DNA of 64,000 bases from Patescibacteria group bacterium (GTDB lineage: Bacteria; Patescibacteriota; Minisyncoccia; UBA6257; UBA9933). Where the stretch lies: assembly GCA_030017615.1 (NCBI GenBank), contig JASEIG010000001.1:22518-86517 (forward strand), written 5' to 3'. Both the position numbers and the translations under genes were made by a program. Position 1 is the stretch's first letter; every line of letters begins with the position of its first letter. The notes below the pieces were generated by a model that made no database searches, was not told the origin of the DNA, and worked only from the letters and a program-made list of their open reading frames with translations. Below, one piece after another: positions 1,108 through 22,766 of the stretch.

Positions 1108-2160
1108 ATGAAAATTCACATCAGTAATTGCAGTAAAAAAGCCCCTTATCAATTTATTAATCTACTTGCAGACGCTTTTGAAAAAGAAGGGCATCGGGTT
1201 TTTAAATTTGATGATAGGGATTATACATCGGTGTATTTGAAAGTTGACAGTTTTATTAGAAGATCGCCACTTTTTCTGTTGACTAAACATTATTCGAAAC
1301 CTTTTGATTTTAAGCAAAAGTACAAGGAATTTATCGGCGAACAATGGCTTAAAACATTAAAAGATTTTAATCCGGATGTGGTTTTAATTGTTAACACGGG
1401 TTGGCTTTCACAAAAAGCCGTGAGTATTGCCAGAGAAAAATTACAATCTAAATTTGTTTTTTGGGTTGTTGATAATCCTGTTTTGCCGGCTGCTGAAGAT
1501 TTAATTAGTTTTTTGCCTTATTGCAATATATTGCTTGTTGCTGATTCTGGCTGGATTCCTCTTATTGGTTTTTTTAATAAGAATGTTGTGTACCTTCCGT
1601 TAGCCAGTTCAGATATTTGTTATAAGACATTTAACCAACCGCGTGACTTGGATTTTTCTTTCACGGGAAGTTTTTTCCCAAAAGAATCGGCCGGTTTTTT
1701 GAGAGCATATATTCTTTCAAATATTCCATCTAAATACAAAGCGGAAATTTATGGTTATAATATCGGTCATTTTTTAAATATTTATCCCAAATTAAAGAAT
1801 TTTAATTGTTATAATAAAAATATCAGCGAATCGTACCTTAATAATCTTTGGAATCGCTCTAAATTAACTGCCGTTATTTATCATCCGCAGGTTATCCATG
1901 GTGTTGCTCCTCGTGTTTTTGACGCCGCTCTTACGAAAACTCCGCAAATTATTCAATACACAACTTCTCTTCAAGATTTATTTCCGGGGATTGCAATACC
2001 AACTTTTAAATCGACGGCTGAATTTTCGGAAAAAGTTGAATATTATTTAAGTCATCTGAAAGAAAGAGAAGAATTAGCAGAAGAAATGTTTGATGTTACG
2101 AAAAACAATCATTTATTTATTCATCGAGTAAGGAAAATAATGGAATTACTAAACAAATAA
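1108..2160 (+). CDS. Putative glycosyltransferase, CgeB/DUF3880-like (GT1-fold C-terminal domain)
   Basis: C-terminal PRVFDAALTKT segment resembles the Glyco_trans_1_2 motif of CgeB-like proteins. Lies inside a glycosyltransferase gene array. Weak recognition. Confidence 0.4.
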   Translation: MKIHISNCSKKAPYQFINLLADAFEKEGHRVFKFDDRDYTSVYLKVDSFIRRSPLFLLTKHYSKPFDFKQKYKEFIGEQWLKTLKDFNPDVVLIVNTGWLSQKAVSIAREKLQSKFVFWVVDNPVLPAAEDLISFLPYCNILLVADSGWIPLIGFFNKNVVYLPLASSDICYKTFNQPRDLDFSFTGSFFPKESAGFLRAYILSNIPSKYKAEIYGYNIGHFLNIYPKLKNFNCYNKNISESYLNNLWNRSKLTAVIYHPQVIHGVAPRVFDAALTKTPQIIQYTTSLQDLFPGIAIPTFKSTAEFSEKVEYYLSHLKEREELAEEMFDVTKNNHLFIHRVRKIMELLNK

Positions 2161-3059
2161 TGGCTGACAAATTAAAATTTAGCATAATTATTCCTTCTTA
2201 TAACGAGGGCGATGACATAAGGTTATCTATTGAATCGGCGATTAATCAAACATATCAGAATAAAGAAATTTTAGTAGTTGACGATTCAAATGACAATACT
2301 CCTAAAATTATCAAAGAATACGAAAATTCTGACGTGTTGTTTTTAAACGGGCCGAGAAGGGGATGTTGCGGAGCGCGTAATTTTGGGATGAAAGAGGCGC
2401 GCGGAGATATCGTGGTTTTATTAAATGGAGATGTGGTATTACCGCCTGATTTTTTGGAAAAAATATTAAGACATTATAATAATGGCGCTGATTATGTTTT
2501 GGTTGAATCAAGGGGATTTAATTTGGAAAATTTATGGGCGCGGTTTGTTGAGATGCAACATCGCTATGAAATGAAAAAAATAGGCGAAACGGCGGAATGG
2601 ACAGAGGGATTTTCATGTCGCAGACAGGCGGCTTTGGATATCGGATTAATTCCGGGAGATTTTTCCGCGCGATTTTGCAGAGATTGGTTTTTAGGGAAAA
2701 AGTTAAAAGAAGCCGGATTTAAGAAAAAAGTTGATTTTTCAATTTTAGTTACGCACAAATCGCCGGATAATTTCAAAGAATATTGGCGGGTCAGAAAAAA
2801 CCGTGGCAAATTTTCCGCTTTAACGCAATGTTTTTTGCTTCGGCATAATCGCGGTTTTTTAACGTTGAAATTCTTATTTAAAAATTTGTTACGGCTTTTG
2901 GAATTTGTTTTAATTTTTCTGGCGGCGATAAAAATATATAAAATAAGCAAATTTTCCGAAAAGCCGGCAAAAAATTTCCTTCCCTTTTTATTCGCGTATT
3001 TTATCCAAAAAATCGCTTTTGTATACGGAGAATGGAGCGGGTTAATTTTTAAGAAATAA
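2160..3059 (+). CDS. Glycosyltransferase family 2 (membrane-anchored)
   Basis: N-terminal FSIIIPSYNEGDDI...VVDDSNDNT...GCCGARN GT2 (GT-A fold) signature. Hydrophobic C-terminal segment. Start overlaps the upstream stop (TAATGG). Confidence 0.75.
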   Translation: MADKLKFSIIIPSYNEGDDIRLSIESAINQTYQNKEILVVDDSNDNTPKIIKEYENSDVLFLNGPRRGCCGARNFGMKEARGDIVVLLNGDVVLPPDFLEKILRHYNNGADYVLVESRGFNLENLWARFVEMQHRYEMKKIGETAEWTEGFSCRRQAALDIGLIPGDFSARFCRDWFLGKKLKEAGFKKKVDFSILVTHKSPDNFKEYWRVRKNRGKFSALTQCFLLRHNRGFLTLKFLFKNLLRLLEFVLIFLAAIKIYKISKFSEKPAKNFLPFLFAYFIQKIAFVYGEWSGLIFKK

Positions 3060-3179
3060 TAAATAAAGGTCGAGATAATTTGAATAAATTAAATATCAAA
3101 CAGTGGTTGGTATGGACAAATTTTAAATTATAAACCATCATTATTTATAATTAAAGGAATTACTTTTAAAATAAATAAT

Positions 3180-3950
3180 ATGAAAAAGTTTATTAAAAAG
3201 ATATTACCAGAACCGTTGGCCAAGTTATATTGGTTATTTAAGGTGGCGCGCATAAAATTTATAACATGGATACCAAAATATAACGAAGATGAGTTAATAA
3301 CAGGACATAACGCTGATTTTATGAAAGACGAGCGATTTATGTCCGCGTATAATTCAGCGGTTAAAGCCGGGCTTGCAATTTCAGATAAAATTCATTGGCG
3401 GGCGCATACAATTTGTTGGGCGGCATTACGGGCAAGTCAATTGGAGGGTGATTTTGTTGAAGTTGGAGTGGCTAAAGGATTCTTATCTAAGGTGATTGTG
3501 GATTATCTTAATTTTAAAGAGCTTTCAAAAAATTTTTTCTTATTGGATACATTTGAGGGGTTTATAGAAAAGTATTTTACTGAGAGTGAGAAAAAAAACG
3601 GGAGGAAAGGAGGTAATTATCTTAATAGTGCCAGCTATGAACAGGTTAGAGAAACTTTTCGGGATTATAAAAATGTAAAAATTATAAAAGGAATCGTGCC
3701 TGATATTTTGTCGCGAGTGGATTTTTCTAAAATTGCTTATCTCCATATAGATATGAATTGTACGATTCCGGAAATCTTAGCTGCAGAATATTTTTGGGAT
3801 AAAATGGTATCTGGAGCGATTATGATATTAGACGACTACGGACATAGCGGACATGAAGAGCAAAAATATGCGTTTGATGAGTTTGCTAAAAGGAAAAATG
3901 TTTCTATTTTGTCTTTGCCAACTGGACAGGGCTTAATAATTAAGCCGTAA
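3180..3950 (+). CDS. TylF/MycF-family (macrocin-O-methyltransferase-like) sugar O-methyltransferase
   Basis: LHIDMNCTIPEILAAEYFWDKMVSGAIMILDDYG block and GVAKGFL motif are typical of the TylF class I methyltransferase family. Confidence 0.6.
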   Translation: MKKFIKKILPEPLAKLYWLFKVARIKFITWIPKYNEDELITGHNADFMKDERFMSAYNSAVKAGLAISDKIHWRAHTICWAALRASQLEGDFVEVGVAKGFLSKVIVDYLNFKELSKNFFLLDTFEGFIEKYFTESEKKNGRKGGNYLNSASYEQVRETFRDYKNVKIIKGIVPDILSRVDFSKIAYLHIDMNCTIPEILAAEYFWDKMVSGAIMILDDYGHSGHEEQKYAFDEFAKRKNVSILSLPTGQGLIIKP

Positions 3951-7304: not shown

Positions 7305-8600
7305 ATGAAAATGTTGCTGATAGGGATTACAAGCGAGGTTGAACCCTTAGGGATGATGTATTTAGCCGCGTCTTTAAAGTTACGGGGCCATTCAGTCGAT
7401 TTCCAAATCTTCAAGAATGAAATGAAGGTAAAAGAAGCGACTCTTAAAAACGGCTATGATTTCATCGGTTTCAGCGTTTTGACTGGCTCTCACAAATCAT
7501 TAAAGGATTTGTCGCTGAGATATATGGAGGCTGGAATAAAAACCGTCATTGGCAACGCTCATGCAACTTTTTTTTCCGAGGATTGTTTGAATGTCGCGAA
7601 CTTTGTTCTTGTCGGAGAAGGTATAAATTTAATCAACGATATTGTTGAAAATAAGGTTTCTGAAGGCAAGGTTTTCTCTCCAAACTTGTGTGATGTAAAT
7701 GATATGCCGATGCCGGATCGTGAAATTATTTATAGGGATGGTGAAAGAAAAAATAACCCCATAAAAAATGTCATGACCAGTTTTGGTTGCCCCTTTCGTT
7801 GTAGCTACTGTTACAACGACCAGTATAAAAAACTGTACCCCGGGTATAAAGTCAGATTAAGAAGCGTGGAAAGTGTAATTGATGAATGCGGGTTTTTGAA
7901 AAAAAATTATTCTCTTGGAATGATTTTTTTCCAGGATGACTATTTTGGATTCAATATTCCGTGGCTGGAAGAATTTTCCCGAAAATATTCGGAAATGATA
8001 AAAATACCTTTCCATTGCCAGATGAGAGTGGAAGGTGTCATGGAATTACGGATGGGATTGCTGAAAAAAAGCGGTTGTCACGGCATTACCATTGCCATAG
8101 AAAGCTCCAATAATCGGATAAGAAGGAGGTTACTGAACAGAAAAATGTCTGACAAGCAAATTTGGGATGCCTGCCGCCTGATCAAAGAAAAAGGATTCAA
8201 ATTAAGAACAGAGCAGATAATAGGGTTGCCGGAAAGCTCCATAGATGACGACATTGAGCTTTTAAGATGGAATTGCCAGATAGCCCCCGATATAGCCTGG
8301 ACTTCGATATACGCTCCTTTCAGAGGGACAAGCTTGGGGGAATATTGCGTTAAGCATGGCTTATACACTGGCAATAATGATGATATCGCAGATTCTTTCT
8401 TTGATTCCACGGTTTTGAATTTTAATAAAAAGCATCAAAATCAAATCAACAAGTTGCAAAGAATCTTCTCGCTTTGCGCTAAAATCCAAGATGGTCATAT
8501 TTTAGCGGAAAAATTAATAAAACTGGAAAATCTGGATATAAATTTACTGGCCAAGTTGTTAAAAAATCACTTGTACAATTATGGGCTCTATAAGATTTAG
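7305..8600 (+). CDS. B12-binding domain radical SAM protein
   Basis: N-terminal Rossmann-like B12-binding region, then the FGCPFRCSYCYN radical-SAM CxxxCxxC cluster motif. Confidence 0.7.
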   Translation: MKMLLIGITSEVEPLGMMYLAASLKLRGHSVDFQIFKNEMKVKEATLKNGYDFIGFSVLTGSHKSLKDLSLRYMEAGIKTVIGNAHATFFSEDCLNVANFVLVGEGINLINDIVENKVSEGKVFSPNLCDVNDMPMPDREIIYRDGERKNNPIKNVMTSFGCPFRCSYCYNDQYKKLYPGYKVRLRSVESVIDECGFLKKNYSLGMIFFQDDYFGFNIPWLEEFSRKYSEMIKIPFHCQMRVEGVMELRMGLLKKSGCHGITIAIESSNNRIRRRLLNRKMSDKQIWDACRLIKEKGFKLRTEQIIGLPESSIDDDIELLRWNCQIAPDIAWTSIYAPFRGTSLGEYCVKHGLYTGNNDDIADSFFDSTVLNFNKKHQNQINKLQRIFSLCAKIQDGHILAEKLIKLENLDINLLAKLLKNHLYNYGLYKI

Positions 8601-8648: not shown

Positions 8649-8799
8649 ATATAAAAACAGAAAGCAAATGACTTGATTTGTAGATTAATTTATCGTATTA
8701 TTATCCGAATTGGATTTGATTAACTGGTATTAAAATTATGATAAAGGGCAATGATTTTTAACTTTTAATTCATTGAGATTGGGGCAATTTATAATTATT

Positions 8800-11244
8800 A
8801 TGAAAAGTAAGTGTAAGTATTTGATTTTGATTTTATTACTAACGGCAATAATGATTGGCGTTAATTTTTATAAGTTTAGTGATACATATTACGGAGGGGA
8901 TACAATTTACGGGGCTCAAGTGGCAAGAAACGTGATGGCTGGGAAAGGTTATGTTACTTCGGAGATGCCGCTTTATGCCATAAATCTTTATCAAAAATTA
9001 GGCCTTTCACTTGACGGGCCATGGCTTAACACTCACAGGTTCGTTTTGCCGGTTTATCTTGATATTCTTTTTATCAAAACATTCGGCAATAATATAAAGA
9101 GTGTAACGTTTTTTTACGACTATCTTTTCTTTTTTTTAACCATAATTTTAATATATTTTTTAGGGTTAAAAATTTGGCCTGATAAGCCGGCTCTGGCATT
9201 TTTAGCCGCCTTTGTATCCTTAATCAATCCATTAGTGCTTGGTTCCGATGTGTTTGTTTTTTTTGTGTTTCTATATGTAATGAATTTATGGAAAGAAAGC
9301 GATTCAAAATGGTATTTGCTTTTGGCAGGTTTGGTTTCCGGAGCGGCGTTTTTAAGCCGTTATAATTACGGCCTTTTTATTGTAGCGGCTTTTCTCGCGA
9401 TGCTTTACTTTTTGGTTTTCAAACAACGAAAACAGCAGCCGCTGAAAATTTTATTAAAACAATTTATTGGCAAGTATCTTGTTTATTTTAGCGGTTTTCT
9501 TGCGGTAGTAGTCGGTTTTGTTATTTGGAATTTAAAAAATACGGGACATGTATTTTTATCAATAAACGGCCTTTTCCAATTATTTCACGATACTCGTTTT
9601 TACAGTTATATCGATGGCTGGTATAAATTGGAATATATCTTCCCGACGGACAATCCTTTTGGTTATCTGTTCACGCATCGTGATGCGTTAGTGGCCGTGA
9701 CTGCCAGATGGTTCAAATATGCTATTTCGGATATCATAAGATTGATTTCGTTTCAAGGAATTTTATGGTGGCCGCCTTTAGTTTTCGGATATTTCATGAT
9801 TTCCCGAAAAATTAAGGATGACTCTTTAAAAACAGTAAATTTTCTTCTGTGGATTGTATTTATTTTAACATTTTTTCAAATCATAATTTTGCCAATTTGG
9901 GCCGGAGGCGTAGGTTATTTTATGTTTTTGTTTCCCATTTTTAGCTTTCCCATCGCCTATGTTTTATATTTTACGTATCAGAAATTTGCAGGCTTCTCGA
10001 TTTTTAACGGCATTGATACCATTTCTTTTTTAAAAAAAATCGGGAATAATATTTTTGGAAAAACAACTTCCGAAAATATTTTGAATATTATTTTGATTAT
10101 TCTGATATTGACATCCTTTATTTTTTTGATTTACCCCCTTCCTACGGCTATTGCCCAATTTTTGGGCACAAAAGGTTCTCCGCTGATGGTTTTAATAATT
10201 TTTTGCTTTATTCTGTTCTTAATTTTAGGCGCGATATTTGTTTCACTAAATAATTACAGCAAGTTATTATTTCCAACCTTTTTATTAATTGGGATGTCCT
10301 ATCTTTTTATTGTCAGAGTCGGTATTTTTAACGACATATCCGGAATGAGCCCGAAATCCAGATGGGATTTGGAGGATAATTTTGAAAATATCAAATTATT
10401 AGAAAAAACTGGTAATAATGGCGTTATTCTTTCATTGGCTCCGTGGAATGTCGTTTGGTGGAGCGCTAATAAGTTGAAATCTCTTCCAATTCCGGAATAC
10501 CCCGATGAAGTTTATCTGCTTGAAACGAAATATAATCAGAAAATTGACGCTATTTATTTGAATAAAATAAATAAATACGTCGTACAAGTGATATCTTACC
10601 CCTGGTCCGCGTATCAAAGGGCTGTTAATTTTGGCTATACATTTGACGGATTTAAAGTTTCAAAAAGGTTACTTGATACCAGCGGCATAATTTTAGAGAG
10701 GGATAAGAATTTCCGTTTTCCTTTATCGACAGATTTGATTGATTTTGGAAAGGAATCGGCCAGTAGCCATTTAATCTGGGGATGGGGAGAAAATCTCAAA
10801 GATGGAGACAGAGATTACGTTTCTGCCGGAGAATTCAGGTATTTGATGAATAAAGATGAATATCACAACGAAGATATTAGGGAAGTTTTCGGTATATTTA
10901 TGGAATCGGGCGTGACTTATAAGCCTAATGTTGAAGTAACTTTTCTTGCGAGTGATAACAAAAAGCCGAATAAGATAGAAATTGCACTGAAGAGTTTGGT
11001 TGAAAAACAAAATATGGAGTTGATTCTTAATGGAAATCTTTTATATGTTGGTCAGCCGGGCGTTGATTTGGGAAATTTTAACATAAGCACTAAGTGGCAA
11101 AAATTGGTGATTAATATAGATTCTCAAAAATTAAATAATGGCACCAATAAATTATCTTTTGTTTTTGCCGCAACTCGCAAAGGAGTTCCTCCGGAAGAGG
11201 ACCAATTTGCCTTGTTTGATTACATAAAATTCTACGGCGATTAA
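8800..11244 (+). CDS. GT-C fold membrane glycosyltransferase (ArnT/PMT-like) with large C-terminal extracytoplasmic domain
   Basis: About 12 predicted TM helices over the first ~500 aa, with aromatic-rich loops typical of the PMT_2/ArnT family. The soluble C-terminal ~300 aa domain is not recognised. ATG at 8800 is preferred over the TTG at 8773. Confidence 0.5.
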   Translation: MKSKCKYLILILLLTAIMIGVNFYKFSDTYYGGDTIYGAQVARNVMAGKGYVTSEMPLYAINLYQKLGLSLDGPWLNTHRFVLPVYLDILFIKTFGNNIKSVTFFYDYLFFFLTIILIYFLGLKIWPDKPALAFLAAFVSLINPLVLGSDVFVFFVFLYVMNLWKESDSKWYLLLAGLVSGAAFLSRYNYGLFIVAAFLAMLYFLVFKQRKQQPLKILLKQFIGKYLVYFSGFLAVVVGFVIWNLKNTGHVFLSINGLFQLFHDTRFYSYIDGWYKLEYIFPTDNPFGYLFTHRDALVAVTARWFKYAISDIIRLISFQGILWWPPLVFGYFMISRKIKDDSLKTVNFLLWIVFILTFFQIIILPIWAGGVGYFMFLFPIFSFPIAYVLYFTYQKFAGFSIFNGIDTISFLKKIGNNIFGKTTSENILNIILIILILTSFIFLIYPLPTAIAQFLGTKGSPLMVLIIFCFILFLILGAIFVSLNNYSKLLFPTFLLIGMSYLFIVRVGIFNDISGMSPKSRWDLEDNFENIKLLEKTGNNGVILSLAPWNVVWWSANKLKSLPIPEYPDEVYLLETKYNQKIDAIYLNKINKYVVQVISYPWSAYQRAVNFGYTFDGFKVSKRLLDTSGIILERDKNFRFPLSTDLIDFGKESASSHLIWGWGENLKDGDRDYVSAGEFRYLMNKDEYHNEDIREVFGIFMESGVTYKPNVEVTFLASDNKKPNKIEIALKSLVEKQNMELILNGNLLYVGQPGVDLGNFNISTKWQKLVINIDSQKLNNGTNKLSFVFAATRKGVPPEEDQFALFDYIKFYGD

Positions 11245-11256
11245 ATGAAATACCGA

Positions 11257-12948
11257 TTAATTATTTAACAAATTAGAATTTTTAAGGAACTTTTTACTTT
11301 CTTTATTTAAAATATTTTTATTAAATTTCCCGTTGGATAAAATTGTTTTTCCGTTAATTTTAATTGTCGCGTCAGCTATGGTACCGTCATAATGCGGACC
11401 ATTATTTTCCCCGCCGAAATAGCTGTTATTGCCGAAGCCAACGTGGATAGTGCCGGCTTTTTTTTCATCTTCCAAAATTGTCCGGTTCAATATGCAGTTT
11501 GGATTTATTCCGATGCCTATCTCGGCAATATACGATAATGTCGGGTATTTTTTAAAGTATCTTTTAATAATCCCTTTATCCTCTCCTTCAATTTTTATTA
11601 TTTTTCCATTTTGGATATGAAATGTAAGAGGAAATTGGGAAACATCTCCTAATTCGTCAAAACTAATATTAAAAATTAAAGTTCCGTTAGCATCGTTTGA
11701 AGTTATTCCGAATGAAATTTCGCCGGAAGGAAAATTGCCTCCGCTTCCTGGATTTTGATAAAGACCGCTTTCAACAAATGCGGAAGAATATTTTAACTTG
11801 AGATTCAAGCCTTTTTTGTTGGAGATTTCTATAATACCATTATTTTTAATTTTATTTAAAACATCATCGCCAAGAGCCGCCATTTTCTTGAAATCAGTGA
11901 AAAAACCGCCGTTCTTTAAAATTTCAGGACACATTCCATAACATTCAAGAACTTTATTTTTATATTCATATTTTGCCCTGCGTCTTGTGGGGGCGTGATA
12001 CCAAGATTGCGATGCAGCCAGAATTATAACACTATAATTCTTTATTTTATTTTTAATAGTAGTCGGAAAATCGTTTTTAAAATCAAGCGGGAGATTTTTA
12101 TCAATATCAACTAATGCACCAGACTCCTTTAATAATCTGCTCAATGAATCAATAAATAATTCGGAACTTTTTATATCTGAAAGTATTAAAATTTTATCTT
12201 TTGATTTAATTCTCCAATAGCGAGAAAAATTATTTATTATCGTTTTTTTATTAATTGTTTGATAATATTGATCTTTAATTTTATTTGTTTGTTTTACAAG
12301 CTCCGAAAATTTTTTTCCGCTTGCGTAAATCGGAAAGACGTCAAGATAGTAAAAATTATATTTACGTTTAGTTTGAGTAAGTTTATGGTAGGCCCACGGC
12401 CCTTCAATCCAAATTGCTGAAATAGCGATGACTTTCGCGCCAGCTTTTTTGGCCAAATTTAAAAGGACTTCAATAGTGTTTCCCGTGGAGATGACATCAT
12501 CAAATATCAGGATTTTTTTATTTTTGATAAGTGATGCGTTAAATTTATCAAGATACAGTTTTTGCTTGTAAGAAGAAGTAGCTGTTGATTTTAATTCTTC
12601 GGCTAAATAAACTTTACTGTCGTTTTTGATATTTTTTCTCGCAACAGCCATATTTTTGAGATTTAATTGTTTTGAAAGTTCATAAGCTATCGGAATCGGT
12701 CTTGATTCGGCAGTCAAAATACAGTCGATTTTTAATAAAGTTACCATTTTTCTGGCGGCTAATTTTGTGAATTCCACGTCAGACCCGAAACTTAGTTTAG
12801 TATTGCCGACAATATTAATTTCACCGCTTTTGCATATAGGCAAAGACCGTTCTAAGCCATAAAAATTTAATTCGTAATTTTTTACGTGATTATTTTTTCT
12901 AATATCAATAAATTTTGTGCTATTGGAAAAAATATCGGGATCTAGCAT
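11257..12948 (-). CDS. Fusion protein: type I phosphoribosyltransferase domain (N) + M29 (AmpS/PepS-like) aminopeptidase domain (C)
   Basis: PRTase PRPP-binding motif ILIFDDVISTGNTIEVL in the N-terminal third. C-terminal EIGIGINPN...AGTIHVGFGNNSYFGGENNGPHYDGTIADATIKINGKTI matches the M29 thermophilic aminopeptidase core. Continuous 563-aa ORF. Confidence 0.55.
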   Translation of the reverse strand: MLDPDIFSNSTKFIDIRKNNHVKNYELNFYGLERSLPICKSGEINIVGNTKLSFGSDVEFTKLAARKMVTLLKIDCILTAESRPIPIAYELSKQLNLKNMAVARKNIKNDSKVYLAEELKSTATSSYKQKLYLDKFNASLIKNKKILIFDDVISTGNTIEVLLNLAKKAGAKVIAISAIWIEGPWAYHKLTQTKRKYNFYYLDVFPIYASGKKFSELVKQTNKIKDQYYQTINKKTIINNFSRYWRIKSKDKILILSDIKSSELFIDSLSRLLKESGALVDIDKNLPLDFKNDFPTTIKNKIKNYSVIILAASQSWYHAPTRRRAKYEYKNKVLECYGMCPEILKNGGFFTDFKKMAALGDDVLNKIKNNGIIEISNKKGLNLKLKYSSAFVESGLYQNPGSGGNFPSGEISFGITSNDANGTLIFNISFDELGDVSQFPLTFHIQNGKIIKIEGEDKGIIKRYFKKYPTLSYIAEIGIGINPNCILNRTILEDEKKAGTIHVGFGNNSYFGGENNGPHYDGTIADATIKINGKTILSNGKFNKNILNKESKKFLKNSNLLNN

Positions 12949-12957
12949 GGTTTAGTA

Positions 12958-13788
12958 TTAAAAAGTTAAAATAAATTTATTTATTAATTTAAATAAATAT
13001 TCGGATTTGATTTTGCCGACATTCCAGATTTTATCCAAATTTATTTTTGATTTGCCTTTAAGCGAAGTAATATCGCTTACGCAAGAAATAGCGGCAATAT
13101 TTGTATTGGCTTGGCGCGCGGCTAAAACTTCTGGGACTATTGACCAACCGACTATGTCGGCGCCTATTTTTTTTAATAAAGAAAGCTCCGCCGGCGTTTC
13201 AAAATTAGGGCCGATAAGAAAAGCAAAGATTCCTTCATTGGCTTTGATTTTTTCTTTTTTAGCAATGGCAATAAGTTTTTTATTCCACTCTTTTTTATAG
13301 GCGTTTGTCATATCAACAAAATAAGATCCTAAATTTTCATCAGACATTATCAGAGGATTAAAATCGGTTAAATTGATATGATCTTTTAAAATAATAAAAT
13401 CGCCGACTTTATGTTTCTGATTAATGCCGCCGACTAAATTGGTAAAAATAACGCCTTGCTTGCTGATTTTAGCCGCCACTCGCGCGTTATAGGCGACCTC
13501 CTGGGCATTATAACCTTGGTATGCATGAATTCTTCCGTGAAATATTAAAACGTTTTTACCGCCCAATGTTCCGAATCGCAATAATCCTTTATGGGTTTTA
13601 ATTACTGGCTTTACAAAATTTGGAATTTTTTCATAAGGAATAACAATTTTTTCTTTGAATAATTTATTATCCGGCTCAAATCCAGACCCGAGAATAATTG
13701 AAAAATCAATTTTTAAAGCAATATTTTTTTTGATAAAAGCGATTGATTCCGATATTTTTTTTGAAATCAGTTTTTGGGATTTATTCAT
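12958..13788 (-). CDS. Purine nucleoside phosphorylase / MTA phosphorylase family (PNP_UDP_1)
   Basis: VLIFHGRIHAYQGY and GIFAFLIGPNFETPAE motifs of trimeric PNP/MTAP enzymes. Length 276 aa. Confidence 0.7.
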   Translation of the reverse strand: MNKSQKLISKKISESIAFIKKNIALKIDFSIILGSGFEPDNKLFKEKIVIPYEKIPNFVKPVIKTHKGLLRFGTLGGKNVLIFHGRIHAYQGYNAQEVAYNARVAAKISKQGVIFTNLVGGINQKHKVGDFIILKDHINLTDFNPLIMSDENLGSYFVDMTNAYKKEWNKKLIAIAKKEKIKANEGIFAFLIGPNFETPAELSLLKKIGADIVGWSIVPEVLAARQANTNIAAISCVSDITSLKGKSKINLDKIWNVGKIKSEYLFKLINKFILTF

Positions 13789-13811
13789 AAAATCTGCAGT
13801 TTAATTTTAAA

Positions 13812-14840
13812 TTAAATATTTTTATCTTTTAACCAATCAACCGTGTCTTTGATGGTTTTATCAATATTAATGTAATCAAGCCCAAGTTCTTTTTGGGATT
13901 TTGTCCCATCATATCCGGGTTTTAAACGGGCAATATGAAGGCTTTTCGGCGCGACAATTGGCGGTATTTTGGTAATATAACTGACAGCTAAATTTAAATA
14001 GGCGATTAGATATGCGAACCAATACGGGATTTCAAACCATTTTAATTTAAGATTAGCTGCCTTGGCAATACGCTTAAAAAGATCATTCATTGTCAGATTG
14101 GCCGCACATAAGATATATTTTTCTTTTTCTTTGGCTTTGGTAAGCGCTAAAAAATGGGCACGTCCCACGTCTCTCACGTCAACTAGTCCTATACGTGTGT
14201 CCAGCGAGGCCTTATTTTTTCCTTTCAAAAATCTGTAAATTAATTCCATGGTTGGAGGAATTGATTTATTTCCTATATTAGGTCCGATTACCGCGGCGGG
14301 ATTCAGGATTTTAATGGAAATATTTTCATTGCTTTCCAATAACAGTTTTTCTGATAAGTATTTTGACTGGCCGTAATCATTATCAATATTGCGGAAATTA
14401 TACGGAATTTTTTCATTTGCAACTTCATTTTCCGGCAGCAGACCTATGGTTTTAATACTGCTTGTGTAAATGAATTGCTCAATTCCTTTTTGAACTGCCA
14501 AATTAAGTAAATTTTCCGTTGCTTCAACATTTGTTTTATACAGCAAATTTATATCATCGATCCATATTTTATGTATGGCCGCGGAATGGAAAACATAATT
14601 TATTCCGTCAAGGGCGCTGGAATAAGAATTCGGATTTAAAATATTTCCTCCAATCAATTTCACTCCAAGGGATCTAAGTTTTTCAACGGAATGTTTATCG
14701 GAGTTTTTTCTGATCAGAGCTTTTACAGAAATATTGTTTTCAAGCAGATTTTTAATTATATAAAACCCTACAAATCCGGTGCCGCCGGTGACAAAAGCGA
14801 TTTTTTGAACTATTTTAGATGATATTTTTTGTAATGACAT
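13812..14840 (-). CDS. NAD(P)-dependent epimerase/dehydratase-family SDR reductase
   Basis: N-terminal FVTGGTGFVGFYII Rossmann motif and YGQSK catalytic YxxxK. Overlaps the upstream Cys-rich gene by 26 bp, which suggests an operon. Confidence 0.65.
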   Translation of the reverse strand: MSLQKISSKIVQKIAFVTGGTGFVGFYIIKNLLENNISVKALIRKNSDKHSVEKLRSLGVKLIGGNILNPNSYSSALDGINYVFHSAAIHKIWIDDINLLYKTNVEATENLLNLAVQKGIEQFIYTSSIKTIGLLPENEVANEKIPYNFRNIDNDYGQSKYLSEKLLLESNENISIKILNPAAVIGPNIGNKSIPPTMELIYRFLKGKNKASLDTRIGLVDVRDVGRAHFLALTKAKEKEKYILCAANLTMNDLFKRIAKAANLKLKWFEIPYWFAYLIAYLNLAVSYITKIPPIVAPKSLHIARLKPGYDGTKSQKELGLDYINIDKTIKDTVDWLKDKNI

Positions 14841-15978
14841 ATTTTATATCATTTTTAAATGGGCATGATACGGTTATTCCATCTTTATATATGTCAGTTT
14901 CTTTATTATATTCAAGTAAGAGCAAGTAGGGGAAAATACGCGTAAAAAGATGGAGACAGATAATTTTTGAAAAATCAAAATTGAATACTTGGTTTTCTTT
15001 ATGTTTTAACAAGCAATAATTCTTTGTTTTTTTAACCGTTAATGAAGTTTTTGATTTGTCATTCGGGTCTCTGCTAATCATAAATTCAACTTTTCCGCCG
15101 GGATTTGGGCATTGAACTTGCGCACTGTTGATATCTTTGCTCCATTTGAAATAGCCCCCATTTTGAAATGTTGTTATGTAGGGGATTGCGATGTTAAAAA
15201 CATACGGGCATAGGCTATCCGGCATCAATTCTTTTAAAGTTATTTCTCTTTTTTGCCATAATTTATTTTCACATTTTACATCATTCAAAGAAGTAATTGT
15301 AAATTGGGATAAGTCAGGAAGGCAGAAAAATTGATTATTTGATGATTGTATCGCTTTGGGGCATGAGGTGCAGTTTTGGCAGGAATTTTCGTTAAAGTTG
15401 ACGCTATAGGCGATATCGGTAGCCGAATCGGGGCAAAAAAATTTTATTCTATCAGCACCGTATTTTTTAAGAGATTCATTTCTATTGTATAAATGAATTA
15501 ATGGATATACGGAAAAGAAGGAAGCGGGGCAAAGTTCTTTAATGTCGGGAATTTTTATTTCACATTCATCTCCTTTTTTTAATGCGCAATTATTTCCTGA
15601 GTTTAAAACTTCCAGTTTTATTAGTTTATCAATTGCATCTTTTGGAAATCCAAGTTTTCTGAATATTTTTTCCGCAATATTTAGGATAAATTTAATTTTT
15701 TTAAATCTGTAGCTTATTTTCAGCAAGGTCGGATCACTGGCATTTGGACAACTTACAACGATTTCATTTTTATCTAACTGTTTGCCAAATTTGGCATTAT
15801 ATAAAAGTGCTAAAAGGTACGGATAGACCGCGTAATAAGCATCAATACAAAAATTTTTAGGGTGCAGGGCATCATTGTTATATATTTCTTTGCCGGTTTT
15901 ACAATAGCCACAACCCTTATTTTTTGTTAAATGTTGGCATACGTTTATTTGTTCCAGATTTGTGCAATATTTAACCAT
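14815..15978 (-). CDS. Cysteine-rich protein (about 22 Cys) with four internal ~40-aa C-x8-[YIF]P...[YF][NQ]...C-P repeats; unknown function, candidate radical-SAM partner or substrate
   Basis: Repeats seen directly: FCIDAYYAVYPYLLALLYNAKF..SCPNASD; LCPASFFSVYPLIHLYNRNE..FCPDSATD; LCPYVFNIAIPYITTFQNGG..QCPNPGG; ICLHLFTRIFPYLLLLEYNKET..SCPFKND. Starts 12 bp after the SPASM-rSAM gene stop. Confidence 0.5.
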   Translation of the reverse strand: MVKYCTNLEQINVCQHLTKNKGCGYCKTGKEIYNNDALHPKNFCIDAYYAVYPYLLALLYNAKFGKQLDKNEIVVSCPNASDPTLLKISYRFKKIKFILNIAEKIFRKLGFPKDAIDKLIKLEVLNSGNNCALKKGDECEIKIPDIKELCPASFFSVYPLIHLYNRNESLKKYGADRIKFFCPDSATDIAYSVNFNENSCQNCTSCPKAIQSSNNQFFCLPDLSQFTITSLNDVKCENKLWQKREITLKELMPDSLCPYVFNIAIPYITTFQNGGYFKWSKDINSAQVQCPNPGGKVEFMISRDPNDKSKTSLTVKKTKNYCLLKHKENQVFNFDFSKIICLHLFTRIFPYLLLLEYNKETDIYKDGITVSCPFKNDIKYVITKNII

Positions 15979-15990
15979 TACGATAAAAAG

Positions 15991-17049
15991 TTATTTCCAA
16001 AGCATTTTTTTAATAACATCCATCCAATCCTCAAAATTTAACGCAAAAAATGTAGTTGATTCATCGGAACTTCCGCAAGCTATGCATTTTGCCTTTGGTC
16101 CCAATTTTTCCCAGGCATCTTTAATATTGCCATTATTTACTTTGGATGCGTATTCCGGCCGGAAAAAAGTTGTCGGACAAGGGCATAGGGTATTATCTCC
16201 ATCAAGCCAGCAAATTAAACGTCCATGCCTGCATTCATCGTATTTATAATCGGAAGGCAGATTTTCCTTAAAACCGATTGAGGTATAGCTAATAGGCCAA
16301 TCCGCAGCTTTTTTAAGGGAATTAAACGTATTACTGATAGGATAACCCTGTTTTTTCAGTTCAATCAGTTTTTGATATACTTTTTTGGTTTCTTCGGTTG
16401 TTAGTTCTCCGGTACCCACAGATTTTGTATTTTCCGCTCCGGAAACGACGGATACACAGAAAGAAACTTGGGTGTTATATTTTTTTGCCAAATCAAAAAG
16501 ACTCATAATAGATTCATTATTAAAAGCACTTTCCCTGACAAGAGCGGCATGAATTTCAAAGGGTATTTTATTTGCAAAAGCAGCATCCATTCCTTCAATA
16601 ACTTTTTGATAAATTCCTTTTCCTCTCGTTTGTTCAACTATCTGTTCATTGCCATCAAGGCTAAAACTTAGCTGGTCCGCTCCAAGAAGGGCATCAATTC
16701 TATTTGCCACTAATACTCCATTTGTAGAAATTCGACAAAAACGTTCCTTATTTTTTATGTATGATATAATTTCTTTCAAATCCGGTCTTAAACAAGGCTC
16801 GCCGCCTTGTAAAAGAAATATTCTTGTTCCAAGTTTAATAAATTGGTTAATGTAACTCTTAAGTTGTTGGGTATTATAATCCGGTATTCCCACATTTTCT
16901 TGATCCTTGGCATAACAAAATATGCAATTTAAGTTACATTTATTTGTTAATCCTAAAGAAACCATTAAGGGAACTCTTCTTTTTGTAATTTTATAATTTA
17001 AAGAGTGGAGAAAAATAAAAAATCCATTAATAACATATTCTTTTTTCAT
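15991..17049 (-). CDS. Radical SAM protein with C-terminal SPASM/twitch-like cysteine cluster
   Basis: CNLNCIFCYA (CxxxCxxC) near the N-terminus. C-terminal CRHGRLICWLDGDNTLCPCP...CIACGSSDE auxiliary-cluster pattern. Confidence 0.7.
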   Translation of the reverse strand: MKKEYVINGFFIFLHSLNYKITKRRVPLMVSLGLTNKCNLNCIFCYAKDQENVGIPDYNTQQLKSYINQFIKLGTRIFLLQGGEPCLRPDLKEIISYIKNKERFCRISTNGVLVANRIDALLGADQLSFSLDGNEQIVEQTRGKGIYQKVIEGMDAAFANKIPFEIHAALVRESAFNNESIMSLFDLAKKYNTQVSFCVSVVSGAENTKSVGTGELTTEETKKVYQKLIELKKQGYPISNTFNSLKKAADWPISYTSIGFKENLPSDYKYDECRHGRLICWLDGDNTLCPCPTTFFRPEYASKVNNGNIKDAWEKLGPKAKCIACGSSDESTTFFALNFEDWMDVIKKMLWK

Positions 17050-17170
17050 ATTTAATGAATATTACATTAATAATAATTAAAACAATTTTAATTAACCCTA
17101 ATTAAATAGTCAATTAATTTTGATGTTTGAGTTATTGCGTTTATTGTCGGAATAAGCGTAAAATAAATAG

Positions 17171-18370
17171 ATGAAAATTCTTCATATTGTTCCGACTTAT
17201 TATCCGGCTGTGCGCTATGGCGGGCCTATAAAGAGCGAATATGAATTGAATAAATGGTTAGTTAAAAAAGGGGCTGATGTGACCGTTTACACCACAAATC
17301 TTGACGGGAAAGGGGTTTTGGACGTTTCATTGGGAAAAGAGGTGATTATTGATGGCGTTAAAGTTTATTATTTCCCAATAACTTTTAGATCGTGGCAGTA
17401 TTCTTGGCAACTTCATCGCGCTTTGGCAAAAAATGTCCAAAATTTTGATTTGATTCGCATCACGTCTGTTTTTTTAGCAGTTTCCACTTTAGGAGCTTAT
17501 TATGCTAAAAAATTTAAAAAACCGTATGTTATTTCACCGCGCGGGAGTTTAATGAAAGAGCCACTTATCAGAAAAAGCTCTCTTAAAAAGAAAATTTATC
17601 TTAATTTGGTTGAAAAAAGAAATTTAAAAGACGCAATAATCAATTTTACGACTGAGATGGAAAAAAAGGAGTATTTGGATTTAAATTTTCCCCTAAAAAA
17701 TTCAATTATAACTCCGAATGGCATTGATGTTAATGAATTCAGTAAAAAAGTTCCACAAGGATTTTTTAGAAATAAATTCAAAATTTCAAATGACAAAAAA
17801 ATAATTCTATCTTTGGGACGGTTAAATTGGAAAAAAGGTTTTGACACTTTTATTCCGGCTTTTGCTAAAATAATTAAAAAAGAACCGAAAGCGGTTTTGG
17901 TTATTGCTGGGGGAGATGATGAGGGATACGGACAAAAAATCAAATCTCAAATCTCAAATCTCAAAATTGAGGATAAAACTATCTTTACGGGAATGCTAGC
18001 TGGTGATGATAAAATTGCGGTTTATCAGGACAGTAATATTTTTGTTTTACCGTCGTATTCGGAAAATTTTGGCAATGTTGTTTTGGAGGCGGCATATTTT
18101 GGCTTACCGGTTGTTGTCACTAAAGGAGTTGCTGTCGGTTTGGAATTTGAAAAAGCCGGTGCTGGAATTGCTGTTGAAAAAAATGTCCAAGAATTGGCCG
18201 AAGCGATTTTAAAGATTTTAAAAAATTCGGGATTAGGCAAAAAGATGGGCATAGTTGGGAAAAAATTTGTTGAAACTGAATTTTCTTGGTTGAAAATAAC
18301 GGAGAATTTTATAAAAAAGTATAGTGATTTATTGATAAATAAACAAATTAATGAAACCAATTTATCTTGA
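17171..18370 (+). CDS. Glycosyltransferase family 4
   Basis: ILHIVPTYYPAVRYGGP N-terminus and the ENFGNVVLEAAYFGLPVVVT EX7E motif. Contains the in-frame heptanucleotide repeat tract. Confidence 0.75.
   Translation: MKILHIVPTYYPAVRYGGPIKSEYELNKWLVKKGADVTVYTTNLDGKGVLDVSLGKEVIIDGVKVYYFPITFRSWQYSWQLHRALAKNVQNFDLIRITSVFLAVSTLGAYYAKKFKKPYVISPRGSLMKEPLIRKSSLKKKIYLNLVEKRNLKDAIINFTTEMEKKEYLDLNFPLKNSIITPNGIDVNEFSKKVPQGFFRNKFKISNDKKIILSLGRLNWKKGFDTFIPAFAKIIKKEPKAVLVIAGGDDEGYGQKIKSQISNLKIEDKTIFTGMLAGDDKIAVYQDSNIFVLPSYSENFGNVVLEAAYFGLPVVVTKGVAVGLEFEKAGAGIAVEKNVQELAEAILKILKNSGLGKKMGIVGKKFVETEFSWLKITENFIKKYSDLLINKQINETNLS
17938..17965 (+). repeat. Heptanucleotide tandem repeat (AAATCTC)x3 plus partial units, in frame inside the GT4 CDS (encodes KSQISNLK)
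   Basis: aaatc-aaatctc-aaatctc-aaatctc-aaaa read directly. An identical unit is repeated x4 at 36456-36483 in the carbamoyltransferase gene. Confidence 0.8.
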
Positions 18371-21009: not shown

Positions 21010-22083
21010 ATGCTCATATTTTCAAAAAAATTTTTTAAAAAAATATCTTCGGTAGTTCCAAATCGTTTTAAGGAGCTTGTTCCGAAACATGTTAAAAATT
21101 TTTTAAGGGGAAAATATATTTCGCGAACAGTAATTATAGACATTGTAGGAACGTGCAATTTAAAGTGTCCATCTTGTCCTAATGGAAACGTTGAAAAAAG
21201 AAACCCAGTCGGGATGATGAATTTGGGTATATTTAATAAGATGTTAGACAAAGTTGCGCTTGAGCATCCAGGGACAACAGTGGCAATTTATAATTGGACT
21301 GATCAATTTCTTCATCCTCAAATAATTGAATTTATAAAAGCTATTCATAAACGTGGTTTTAAATCGCGATTAAGTAGTAATCTCAATTTGCTCCCCGTTA
21401 ATCTTAAAGAATTTGCGGAAACAAATCCAGGCGGAATTACCATATCGCTTTCCGGTTTTACACAAAAAGTTTATGAAATTGCTCATAAGGGAGGCGATAT
21501 TGAAATTATCAAAGAAAATATGCGCAAATTAAGCATGGCTTTGCGAGAAGCAAATGTGTCCACAAGCGTGAATGTGTATTACCATAAATATAAACATAAT
21601 TTGGACGAGGTAAAATTAATGGAAGATTTTGCAAAATCTTTAGGATTTGGTTTTGGAGCGGATTGGGCGTATTTTATGCCAATTGAAGGGGTTAAAAGAT
21701 ATATTGATGGCAATGCTCCCGAGGAAGATGTTAAATTTATAGAAACAAATCTGGCTTTAGATATTAAGAAGGCTGTTGAAGTAGCTAAAGCTTTTAAGGA
21801 TGAGCCGTGCCTTTTTCCGTCAACATTGCTCACGATTGATTGGCGGGGACAAGTCCAATTATGTTGCGGCGTTTATGATTCAAGCCTGTTTTCTTTGGGA
21901 TCTTATCTGGATATGCCATGGGAAATTATTGAGAGCAGATTAAAAAATCACCCTTTTTGCAATGAATGCAAAAAGAATGGACTTCATACCTATATTTCCT
22001 GGAGTAGCAATGAAAAAATTCGTCCAATATATAAAAAAATTGCTGAAGAAAGCATTAAAAATAACAACACAAAAAACAAATGA
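21010..22083 (+). CDS. Radical SAM protein (possible twitch/SPASM-like C-terminus)
   Basis: IVGTCNLKCPSCPNG CxxxCxxC. C-terminal CCGVYDS...HPFCNECKKNG Cys cluster. Confidence 0.65.
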   Translation: MLIFSKKFFKKISSVVPNRFKELVPKHVKNFLRGKYISRTVIIDIVGTCNLKCPSCPNGNVEKRNPVGMMNLGIFNKMLDKVALEHPGTTVAIYNWTDQFLHPQIIEFIKAIHKRGFKSRLSSNLNLLPVNLKEFAETNPGGITISLSGFTQKVYEIAHKGGDIEIIKENMRKLSMALREANVSTSVNVYYHKYKHNLDEVKLMEDFAKSLGFGFGADWAYFMPIEGVKRYIDGNAPEEDVKFIETNLALDIKKAVEVAKAFKDEPCLFPSTLLTIDWRGQVQLCCGVYDSSLFSLGSYLDMPWEIIESRLKNHPFCNECKKNGLHTYISWSSNEKIRPIYKKIAEESIKNNNTKNK

Positions 22084-22766
22084 AAATTACTTTATTTATT
22101 CCAACCTTTAATGAAATACAGGGAATTAAAATGATTATGCCCAGAATAAAAAAAGAATGGGTTAATGAAATTTTAATTATTGATGGAAATTCGACTGATG
22201 GGACCAAAGAGTGGTTGGAACAAAGTGGCTATAGAGTAGCAACTCAAAAAGAACCCGGACTTTTGTCTGCCTGGTGGCAGGGGTTTGAAACGGCAACTGG
22301 TGACATTATAATCTCGTTTAGTCCGGATGGCAATTCGGTCCCGGAGTTGATACCTGCTTTAGTCGATAAAATAAAAGAAGGTTATGATATAGTTATCGCT
22401 TCTCGTTATAAAGACGATGCAAAAAGCGATGATGACACTTGGATGACGGGCTTAGGCAACTTTATGTTTACTAAAATAATTAATCTTCTTTTTGGCGGAC
22501 ATTATACTGATGCTTTGGGTATGTACCGCGCTTTTAGAAAAGAATTGATCACCTCATTGAAATTAGATAATGATAAAAATGAAATTTTTGAAGTGCTTTT
22601 GTCTATTAGAGCCGCCAAGCAAAGGTTGAAAATCGCCGAAATTCCCGGAGACGAACCGCCGAGAGTTGACAAAGAAGACAGTCGGGCGCACCCGGGCATT
22701 TGGGGTAAATTTAAAGGGGGCTTGAAAATGATTTCTATTATTATTAAGGAATTTTTTAAGAGTTGA
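22080..22766 (+). CDS. Glycosyltransferase family 2 (dolichyl/polyprenyl-phosphate sugar synthase-like)
   Basis: ITLFIPTFNE...IIDGNSTDGT...GDIIISFSPDG...ASRY motifs of DPM1/GtrB-like GT2. 4-bp start/stop overlap with the upstream rSAM gene. Confidence 0.7.
   Translation: MKITLFIPTFNEIQGIKMIMPRIKKEWVNEILIIDGNSTDGTKEWLEQSGYRVATQKEPGLLSAWWQGFETATGDIIISFSPDGNSVPELIPALVDKIKEGYDIVIASRYKDDAKSDDDTWMTGLGNFMFTKIINLLFGGHYTDALGMYRAFRKELITSLKLDNDKNEIFEVLLSIRAAKQRLKIAEIPGDEPPRVDKEDSRAHPGIWGKFKGGLKMISIIIKEFFKS

Follow-up and report, generated by a model that had tools for sequence, protein, structure and literature searches.

Fusion of an APRT2-like phosphoribosyltransferase with a NicX-like domain in a Patescibacterium and its association with a variant purine nucleoside phosphorylase

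A 64,000-nucleotide stretch of DNA from a Patescibacteria group bacterium (the window) encodes on its minus strand a 563-aa open reading frame (ORF; 11257..12948), in which a phosphoribosyltransferase (PRTase) resembling the APRT2 type of adenine phosphoribosyltransferase (APRT) is joined to a domain of the NicX branch of the M29 superfamily. The ORF is a real, uninterrupted fusion of two neighbouring genes, and we are highly confident that it represents the fusion of a conserved functional module, the first gene of which codes for a specialised purine nucleoside phosphorylase (PNP). The fused architecture is new and extremely rare, whereas the domain families themselves are known. The three-gene module, and a six-gene cassette, conserved in several phyla, for a radical S-adenosylmethionine (SAM) enzyme, a TIGR04076 protein, an HpnA-like short-chain dehydrogenase/reductase (SDR) and the PNP, PRTase and NicX-like proteins, appear to be undescribed; a literature search for the gene combination and for TIGR04076 found nothing describing the cassette. 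The cassette probably handles adenosine-derived products of radical-SAM enzymes, and the finding is best classed as a variant of the known logic by which SAM by-products and adenine are salvaged, with a third enzyme that has no assigned function.

The fusion ORF runs from ATG to stop without an internal stop codon in the ORF list, and the strings by which it was recognised in the original prediction, made from the window's sequence alone, are all present when checked by coordinate (ILIFDDVISTGNTIEV, EIGIGINPN, TIHVGFG and GPHYDGTIADATIKINGKTI). The encoded protein is an exact match of MDI6717451.1 (P0001), publicly named 'phosphoribosyltransferase family protein' and found on an 87.2-kb contig of a Patescibacteria-group metagenome-assembled genome (MAG); the small-genome host that had been assumed is thus a Patescibacterium. 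In 20 shuffled versions of the window (35% GC) the longest stop-to-stop ORF was 111–206 aa, hence the 563-aa ORF lies far beyond chance. The AlphaFold model of the full-length protein has a mean predicted local distance difference test value (pLDDT) of 88, mostly >90 in the C-terminal domain, and a predicted template modelling score (pTM) of 0.70. Alignment of fused with split proteins, together with the boundary DNA of the split loci described below, places the seam at aa 222–246 (NKIKDQYYQTINKKTIINNFSRYWR; 12211..12285, minus strand), which partly overlaps the previously guessed junction of 12250–12330 and lies slightly lower. Here the PRTase tail leads straight into the [EQ][YF]PGA-type N-terminus of stand-alone NicX-like proteins, and both flanks align in one frame with homologous stand-alone proteins.

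Such an ORF could also result if two genes had been merged by a frameshift, introduced in sequencing or assembly, within the A-rich seam, since this contains an A7 run and the genes of the split loci lie in different frames with an overlap of 1–4 nt, so that one indel could join them. We regard this as extremely improbable. Homologous residues continue in a single frame on either side of the seam, and two further fusions that turned up in other samples, P0002 and P0015, have the same continuous architecture; P0002, with about 56–57% identity to the window protein, even carries the same 7-aa insertion at its seam, and P0015 is an independent fusion. A frameshift is therefore very unlikely, and the repeated independent fusion effectively excludes an assembly artefact.

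The N-terminal half (aa 1–232; 12253..12948, minus strand) is filed as an APRT2-like type I PRTase on the basis of family profiles and of sequence and fold matches to structures in the PDB. PF00156 (Pribosyltran) matches aa 72–188 with 44.6 bits (gathering score 26.3), which together with the canonical loop for phosphoribosyl pyrophosphate (PRPP) bears out the earlier recognition of a PRTase within a single ORF. The best-scoring model is PRK07322 (NCBIfam NF005592; 111 bits over aa 23–184), the subfamily cutoff of which, 143 bits, is not reached. The best sequence matches (E ~1e-14, aa 23–184) are the Thermus thermophilus APRT/APRT2 enzymes (5zgo, 6fsp and 1vch) and adenine phosphopsicosyltransferase (7f06), and in a Foldseek search with the model of the fusion 5zgo is matched with E=8e-14 and a template modelling (TM) score of 0.81 and 1vch with a TM score of 0.82; 6fsp and 7f06 are also among the fold matches, at TM ~0.8. 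The PRPP-binding loop ILIFDDVISTGNTIEV (aa 146–161; 12466..12513, minus strand) is intact and the same as in the Thermus APRT2 enzymes: ILIFDDVISTGNT at aa 146–158 aligns with VAIVDDVVSTGST of 5zgo, including the hydrophobic run, the two acidic residues and the small-residue/Thr-Gly-x-Thr stretch. One Thermus APRT, possibly not the 5zgo/6fsp chain, favours adenine (PMC6317416), and adenine is the presumed base of the PRTase half, with indirect support from the partner PNP. In contrast to the 175–180 aa APRT2 enzymes, the PRTases of the module, fused or split, have a C-terminal extension of ~45–50 aa (WIEGPW...LDVFPIYA; aa 183–232, 12253..12402, minus strand, from the alignment) and are fused or translationally coupled to a NicX-like protein, for which the extension may serve as a docking element.

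The C-terminal half (aa 236–563; 11260..12243, minus strand) had been described as a full M29 (AmpS/PepS) region, which holds at the level of the superfamily and not at that of the family. Precomputed annotation assigns PF26233 ('NicX') to the exact protein P0001 and to its homologues. No match to PF02073 (Peptidase_M29, gathering score 27 bits) was obtained with the full protein or with the C-terminal half alone, even at E<=10, and the half alone had zero matches at that threshold to the local Pfam copy, in which PF26233 is not included. Three stand-alone homologues (P0007, P0013 and P0014) do pass PF02073, with 44–48 bits. When the domain-family profile was searched against the PDB with hmmsearch, NicX (7cn3) was found with E=6e-18, followed by AmpS (1zjc, 3e-4), PepS (0.01) and AmpT (0.11). 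Similarly, 7cn3 is the best Foldseek match of the fusion model (E=2e-21, TM 0.71 over ~350 residues, whole chain), whereas PepS (4icr) and AmpT (2ayi) are matched with E ~1e-10 and TM ~0.5, the domain having ~330 aa as against ~410 in M29 enzymes. Homology to M29 is thus transitive, by way of homologues and profiles, and is seen in the fold, and we place the C-terminal half in the NicX family of this superfamily, as a complete two-lobe domain that does not appear to be of the full AmpS/PepS type.

The metal-ligand region (11386..11730, minus strand), defined by alignments and invariant columns, contains E410 (PSGE), E476 (AEIGIG), E495/K496 (EDEK), H502 (HVGFG), and H519 and D521 (HYD), all of which are invariant across the family (alignments A1 and A3). 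The E410, E476 and H502 columns align with the Glu, Glu and His at chain positions 256, 322 and 351 of AmpS. We take the dinuclear ligands of AmpS to be Glu253, Glu319, His348, His381 and Asp383, the first three being these chain positions minus a 3-residue tag. The AmpS alignment ends before H519-x-D521, a pair that aligns with His318/Asp320 of NicX and that is presumably equivalent to His381/Asp383 of AmpS. Hence, the M29 metal ligands, the presence of which the original prediction had left to be checked, are retained, three by the alignment with AmpS and the HxD pair by that with NicX; an acidic pair also aligns with 'DE' of AmpS, so that the M29 peptidases (AmpS 1zjc, PepS 4icq and AmpT 2ayi) are matched in their Glu/Glu/His columns and acidic pair although they differ in family profile, length and closeness of fold. 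The closest solved relative by both sequence and fold, the NicX/Hpo 2,5-dihydroxypyridine 5,6-dioxygenase (7cn3), is of similar size and shares the HxD motif, but binds one Fe(II) through His265/Ser302/His318/Asp320, a set of which the HxD pair alone is common to both: Glu476 of the fusion is found at His265, His502 at Leu300 and Glu410 at a Phe. The genomic settings differ as well, aerobic degradation of nicotinate and pyridines in the case of NicX and radical-SAM enzymes, glycosyltransferases, a PNP and an SDR in that of the fusion. The C-terminal half looks NicX-like overall, yet appears to have the dinuclear hydrolase ligand set of the aminopeptidases, and its recruitment as a non-peptidase hydrolase, already considered in the original prediction, stays the most plausible reading. 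Dioxygenase chemistry of the NicX type was considered and ruled out, since the set of Fe ligands is incomplete and the surroundings are those of anaerobic radical-SAM chemistry. Among wider relatives, P0063 (771 aa) and P0112 (778 aa) combine a NicX-like match in two stretches with a C-terminal Peptidase_M29 match and have no PRTase. In Clostridium culturomicium (L018, 7008–12312) a 313-aa M29-like relative is encoded among S-Me-THD-like, DUF1177, AroM and Asp/Glu/hydantoin racemase genes, which looks like a cluster for the catabolism of N-heterocycles or amides; the wider family would thus be functionally diverse.

The two halves also occur as separate, adjacent genes, at 13 loci from Scalindua, Planctomycetales, Nitrospinota and unassigned metagenome contigs; the module loci comprise those of Ca. 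Scalindua (L001–L004), a Nitrospinota MAG (L014) and a Planctomycetales MAG (L015), together with L005/L006, L011, L012, L095/L096, L097 and L098–L102. The PNP gene comes first at 12 of the 13 split loci, i.e. at all with upstream sequence (L001–L004, L005, L011, L012, L014, L015, L095, L097, L098, L100, L101 and L102), the contig of L099 ending before the PNP position. The closest stand-alone homologues of the C-terminal half (36–43% identity) are encoded directly after a separate PRTase gene of 210–240 aa; in Scalindua the two proteins have 225 aa (PRTase) and 309 aa (NicX-like). At the four split boundaries that were read, the stop codon of the PRTase gene overlaps or adjoins the start codon of the NicX-like gene (TGATG, GTGA, TTGA and TAATTATG). 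An exhaustive HMMER search among 1.84 billion representatives recovered three full-length fusions, in keeping with the earlier remark that the architecture is not a standard one: the window protein, P0002 (550 aa) and P0015 (544 aa, 38% identity to the window protein), each a singleton among about 15 billion proteins. In neighbour-joining trees of both domains, the window protein and P0002 are found together in 100/100 bootstraps, P0015 groups with the split pair of L012, and the three fusions are monophyletic in 0/100. Because the trees separate P0015 from the other two, at least two separate fusion events have taken place, and this recurrence speaks for the two activities being coupled, either physically or kinetically.

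The linkage to PNP and PRTase genes is specific to this NicX-like subfamily, as it is missing at 75 distant metagenome loci; no such neighbours were found either at the remaining genome loci of L017–L093 or beside P0011, P0013 and P0014. The gene contexts of these distant proteins were also considered as a clue to function and set aside, being unrelated and uninformative for the subfamily. Two closer NicX-like homologues (L016 and L103, 33–36% identity) have no PNP or PRTase gene in the short flank available, and both adjoin paired B12 radical-SAM genes. These two contigs may be too short, or radical-SAM genes may on occasion be the only companions of the NicX-like gene.

The PNP gene (12958..13788, minus strand) lies on the same strand as the fusion at a distance of 9 nt and, as the first gene of the trio, is upstream of it in the direction of transcription; the gene had been identified correctly and only its description as downstream needs to be reversed. 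The protein belongs to the trimeric PNP family, scoring 257.8 bits with PRK08202 (NCBIfam cutoff 218), and we refer to it as Asp-type on the basis of PDB alignments and of an alignment of eight module PNPs. In all eight, the canonical TN (1vmk and 8swu) is replaced by C[IV]SD, which places Asp at the position of human Asn243, the His of the NHEEV motif of 8swu (human His257) is replaced by Leu, Val or Ile, and the canonical VGMS reads VGWS, with Trp at the Met219 position; in the window PNP the corresponding residues are D239 (13072–13074), L251 and W215. The determinant of 6-oxopurine recognition (Asn243) and the His that contacts the 5'-OH are therefore both absent from each of the aligned module PNPs. 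In human PNP, His257 touches the 5'-hydroxyl (PMC4308819), and Asn243Asp together with Glu201Gln leads to the use of adenosine-type substrates (PMC2799393). Because of the Asp at Asn243 and the hydrophobic residue at His257, we infer that the substrate may be an adenine nucleoside whose 5'-OH is lacking or modified, for example 5'-deoxyadenosine, 5'-methylthioadenosine (MTA) or a C5' adduct, and a PNP that releases adenine fits the adenine-type PRTase next door. The original prediction had seen in the two genes a compact purine salvage pair in keeping with an auxotrophic lifestyle. As a general housekeeping pair this does not stand, given the specialised PNP and the occurrence of the same set as separate genes in Scalindua, Planctomycetales and Nitrospinota, in radical-SAM-rich envelope clusters at all loci with enough flank.

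In the window, the fusion is the last of five genes in a minus-strand operon with gaps of -26 to +23 nt. The first gene codes for a 352-aa radical-SAM enzyme of the SPASM/twitch type (15991..17049; PF04055 and Fer4_12), which is generic among NCBIfam models (AhbC 91, MoaA 83 and HpnH 57.5 bits) and has orthologues in L095, L097, L099, L100 and L102. It is followed by a 387-aa Cys-rich tandem TIGR04076 protein (14815..15978; 97.6 bits), with homologues in L001, L094, L095, L097, L098, L100 and L102, and by an SDR of the NAD-dependent epimerase/reductase type (13812..14840; PF01370), with orthologues in L097, L095 and L094, for which the best family is HpnA (TIGR03466; 249.9 bits over the full length, below the cutoff of 367.65). 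Orthologues of these three proteins accompany the trio, in permuted order, in L097, L095, L094, L001, L098, L100 and L102. Wherever several kb of flank are available, all module loci are crowded with genes for radical-SAM and B12 radical-SAM enzymes, for instance eight in ~20 kb at L095 and six at L097, and small family 2 glycosyltransferases (GT2), GT-C enzymes (YfhO and PMT_2-like), methyltransferases and sugar epimerases are also encoded at these loci. For the B12 radical-SAM enzyme the best match is HpnJ, followed by the lipid B12 radical-SAM family TIGR04072. In Scalindua L001, the TIGR04076 halves are encoded apart, one as a 212-aa ORF (320–958) and the other at the N-terminus of a 453-aa adh_short protein (955–2316), a second and different fusion or fission event in the cassette.

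Taken as a whole, our best explanation, which we put forward tentatively, is that the PNP releases adenine and that the fusion, which joins genes 2 and 3 of the trio, recycles the adenine and processes the sugar phosphate. Radical-SAM enzymes of the cluster would convert SAM to 5'-deoxyadenosine, which inhibits radical-SAM enzymes when it is released by them. Next, the Asp-type PNP would use phosphate to cleave 5'-deoxyadenosine, or another 5'-modified adenosine, to adenine and (5-deoxy)ribose-1-phosphate, and the APRT2-type domain would convert adenine and PRPP to AMP. Subsequently, the NicX-like domain, as a putative dinuclear metallohydrolase, would remove or convert the sugar product, most plausibly by hydrolysing the stable sugar-1-phosphate. 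With both products of phosphorolysis swept away by one polypeptide or complex, the reversible reaction would be pulled forward. The phosphorylase route from 5'-deoxyadenosine is known to yield adenine and 5-deoxyribose-1-phosphate, which is stable and needs a dedicated phosphatase (PMC8102628). The same logic is found in the salvage of 5'-deoxyadenosine and MTA by MtnP and in the Synechococcus phosphatase (PMC8102628), where a phosphorylase also frees adenine and the sugar-1-phosphate needs an enzyme of its own; the module differs in that the phosphorylase is of the PNP type with Asp, the candidate sugar-phosphate enzyme has a fold other than that of the haloacid dehalogenase (HAD) family, and an APRT is built in. 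It also differs in that the gene lists of the window, L001, L005, L094, L095 and L097 contain no 5-deoxyribose-1-phosphate isomerase or class II aldolase of the dihydroxyacetone phosphate (DHAP) shunt. As regards its parts, we have moderate confidence in the release and recycling of adenine, for which the sequences give indirect support, and consider action of the NicX-like domain on a sugar-1-phosphate, suggested by the context and by a hydrolase-type metal site, to be doubtful and the weakest step.

Several observations weigh against this explanation. The module PNPs retain the equivalent of Glu201 (FET motif), and the Asp might by itself be insufficient for full specificity towards adenine. 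The PRTase half does not reach the cutoff of the PRK07322 subfamily, and the base that it uses may be one other than adenine. The relatives of the C-terminal half are M29 peptidases and the NicX dioxygenase, neither of which is a phosphatase, and the known phosphatases for 5-deoxyribose-1-phosphate and 5-fluororibose-1-phosphate are found in other families, e.g. HAD (PMC8102628). The P0002 fusion (L007, 1–642) has no PNP gene in the ~630–640 nt upstream, where no ORF exceeds 47 aa, and in this L007 is unlike the other module loci with an upstream flank, which have one. Also, the trio is tied to one particular radical-SAM enzyme and SDR, which would fit a biosynthetic role at least as well as clean-up.

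The main rival is a biosynthetic role modelled on the hopanoid side-chain enzymes, among which HpnH adenosylates and the PNP homologue HpnG removes adenine (PMC13459092). By analogy, the 352-aa radical-SAM enzyme would add the 5'-deoxyadenosyl radical to an alkene of an envelope lipid or glycan precursor, the PNP would remove adenine, the SDR and the NicX-like hydrolase would process the ribosyl-1-phosphate unit and the PRTase half would recycle the adenine. We consider this rather unlikely, though it accounts for several features of the cassette. The hopanoid case likewise brings together in one cluster a radical-SAM enzyme, an adenine-removing member of the PNP family and an SDR of the HpnA kind, and there the expected phosphoribosyl intermediate has never been observed, leaving the dephosphorylating step unassigned (PMC13459092). 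HpnA is the best family of the SDR over its full length and HpnJ, then TIGR04072, that of the B12 radical-SAM enzyme; the trio co-travels with one specific radical-SAM enzyme, TIGR04076 protein and SDR and not with any radical-SAM enzyme; and a PNP without the 5'-OH-binding His is expected for a C5'-substituted substrate. However, all hopanoid-family scores are below their cutoffs, that of the 352-aa enzyme with HpnH (TIGR03470) being 57.5 bits against a cutoff of 225 and lower than those with AhbC and MoaA. The window PNP belongs to the trimeric PNP family, a subfamily other than that of HpnG, with no hopanoid HpnG model among its matches, Trp in place of Met219 points to a 5' pocket that is small and not roomy enough for a bulky adduct, and an acceptor substrate is not evident. 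To our knowledge, hopanoid clusters contain no PRTase or NicX-like gene.

The remaining alternatives assign other substrates to the C-terminal half. As a purine aminohydrolase it would act on adenine or AMP, and the fusion would make inosine monophosphate (IMP) and feed guanine-nucleotide synthesis. C–N hydrolysis at a dinuclear metal centre is chemically near to M29 chemistry, fusions often join consecutive steps, the product would be useful to a purine auxotroph, and NicX and the closest relatives outside the module act on N-heterocycles or amides or are encoded among genes for them (PMC3831237 and gene contexts). We nevertheless hold it to be improbable, since the module is also found in non-reduced genomes, always in radical-SAM/glycan clusters where a role for IMP is not obvious, and no sequence feature specific to the reaction was found. 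The adenine and AMP deaminases that we know of belong to other folds. We give similarly little credence to the arrangement first proposed for this locus, in which a general salvage PRTase of an auxotroph has as its partner a genuine M29 aminopeptidase, or else a domain with a regulatory or moonlighting role, and the PNP is a housekeeping enzyme. The host is indeed a Patescibacterium, the M29-type ligands and EDEK are intact, which would allow peptidase chemistry, and several homologues pass the PF02073 threshold. But this trio of genes is also found linked in Scalindua, Planctomycetales and Nitrospinota, its PNP is of a specialised kind, the PNP/PRTase linkage is missing at the 75 distant NicX-like metagenome loci, and the domain is nearer to NicX, which like Hpo has no aminopeptidase activity on leucine p-nitroanilide (PMC3831237). 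Processing of ribosomally synthesized and post-translationally modified peptides (RiPPs) was also considered, with the NicX-like half trimming a peptide modified by SPASM/B12 radical-SAM enzymes. Such enzymes and aminopeptidases co-occur in RiPP clusters, and ORFs of 62–65 aa follow the module in L005 and L094. This role is very unlikely and we reject it: in the window, the fusion is not flanked by any such small ORF, the end of a convergent gene being 12 nt from it, the neighbours code for glycosyltransferases, sugar epimerases and aminotransferases, and peptide trimming would not explain why the domain is so tightly linked to a PRTase and has repeatedly been fused with one.

Returning to the adenosine-derived products that the cassette probably handles, a more far-reaching possibility, to which we attach a low probability, is that it represents an undescribed pathway in which the adenosyl part of SAM is used as a building block and not discarded as waste. 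In one version, adenosylation and depurination of the HpnH/HpnG kind would equip a lipid or glycan of the envelope with a C5 unit derived from ribose. In the other, 5-deoxyribose from radical-SAM by-products might be turned into a sugar decoration of the cell surface through the small GT2 and GT-C enzymes, by analogy with mycobacterial methylthioxylose (MTX) caps. Either version would make the NicX-like domain a metalloenzyme of a new kind that processes sugar-1-phosphates and is physically coupled to adenine recycling. Analogies for the logic of the cassette, and for this only, are offered by the 5'-halo-adenosine pathways (SalT/SalN/SalM and FlB/FdrA/FdrC), in which a PNP, then a phosphoesterase and then an SDR act on 5'-modified adenosine, and by MTX capping, in which a SAM by-product sugar is reused by a small GT2 lipid-donor synthase and a GT-C transferase. 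The work on 5-deoxyribose phosphates (PMC8102628) mentions FdrA, and in MTX capping the lipid-linked donor is made by mtxS (Rv0539; PMC12088412).

As a Rosetta stone, the fusion ties a large and unassigned M29/NicX branch to nucleoside rather than peptide chemistry, providing a concrete functional link for a large uncharacterised enzyme family and pointing to a new adenosyl-product pathway. If the reading is correct, the cassette would be either a within-cluster system for dealing with inhibitory 5'-deoxyadenosine or a new route from the adenosyl group of SAM to envelope components. It would also offer a candidate for the unassigned dephosphorylation that follows the PNP-type cleavage of adenosyl adducts, e.g. 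of the hopanoid phosphoribosyl intermediate.

The first 33 kb of the window (1–33000) form one cell-envelope glycan locus of at least that length with four radical-SAM genes (7305–8600, 15991–17049, 21010–22083 and 30377–31876). Glycosyltransferases of the GT1-like, GT2, GT4 (two) and GT9 types are encoded here, including a small GT2 at 22080–22766, together with a TylF-type and a class I methyltransferase, DegT and class V aminotransferases, epimerases and a GHMP kinase. Convergent with the fusion and ending 12 nt from it is a plus-strand gene (8773–11244) for an 823-aa polytopic membrane protein with a weak match to PMT_2 (GT-C; 21.5 bits, below the cutoff), and YfhO-type GT-C genes are placed comparably in L001 and L097. 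No Pfam match at E<=1e-5 was obtained for a 547-aa ORF at 23211–24854 on the minus strand. A scan of 10900–17400 for promoters and terminators gave a site count no higher than in shuffled sequence, and a promoter-like site at 17113–17085, upstream of the radical-SAM gene, is only suggestive. The 64-kb window contains no tRNA gene and no Rfam family at threshold.

A transketolase is encoded in two overlapping genes for the N- and C-terminal halves (26092–26907 and 26904–27848, plus strand), and a similar split pair for a thiamine pyrophosphate (TPP) enzyme is found in L005 (2653–3800), two genes upstream of the PNP. Synechococcus transketolase converts 5-deoxyribose to 7-deoxysedoheptulose (PMC8102628), and the split transketolase may or may not be linked to 5-deoxyribose chemistry, the alternative being coincidence. 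In L094, the cluster that carries the independent P0015 fusion, a bifunctional HldE-like protein (2118–3653) has the adenylyltransferase at its N-terminus and the sugar kinase at its C-terminus, the reverse of HldE (PRK11316). Lastly, the GC skew is positive in every 2-kb window of the 64 kb, and the cassette lies on the minority (minus) strand.

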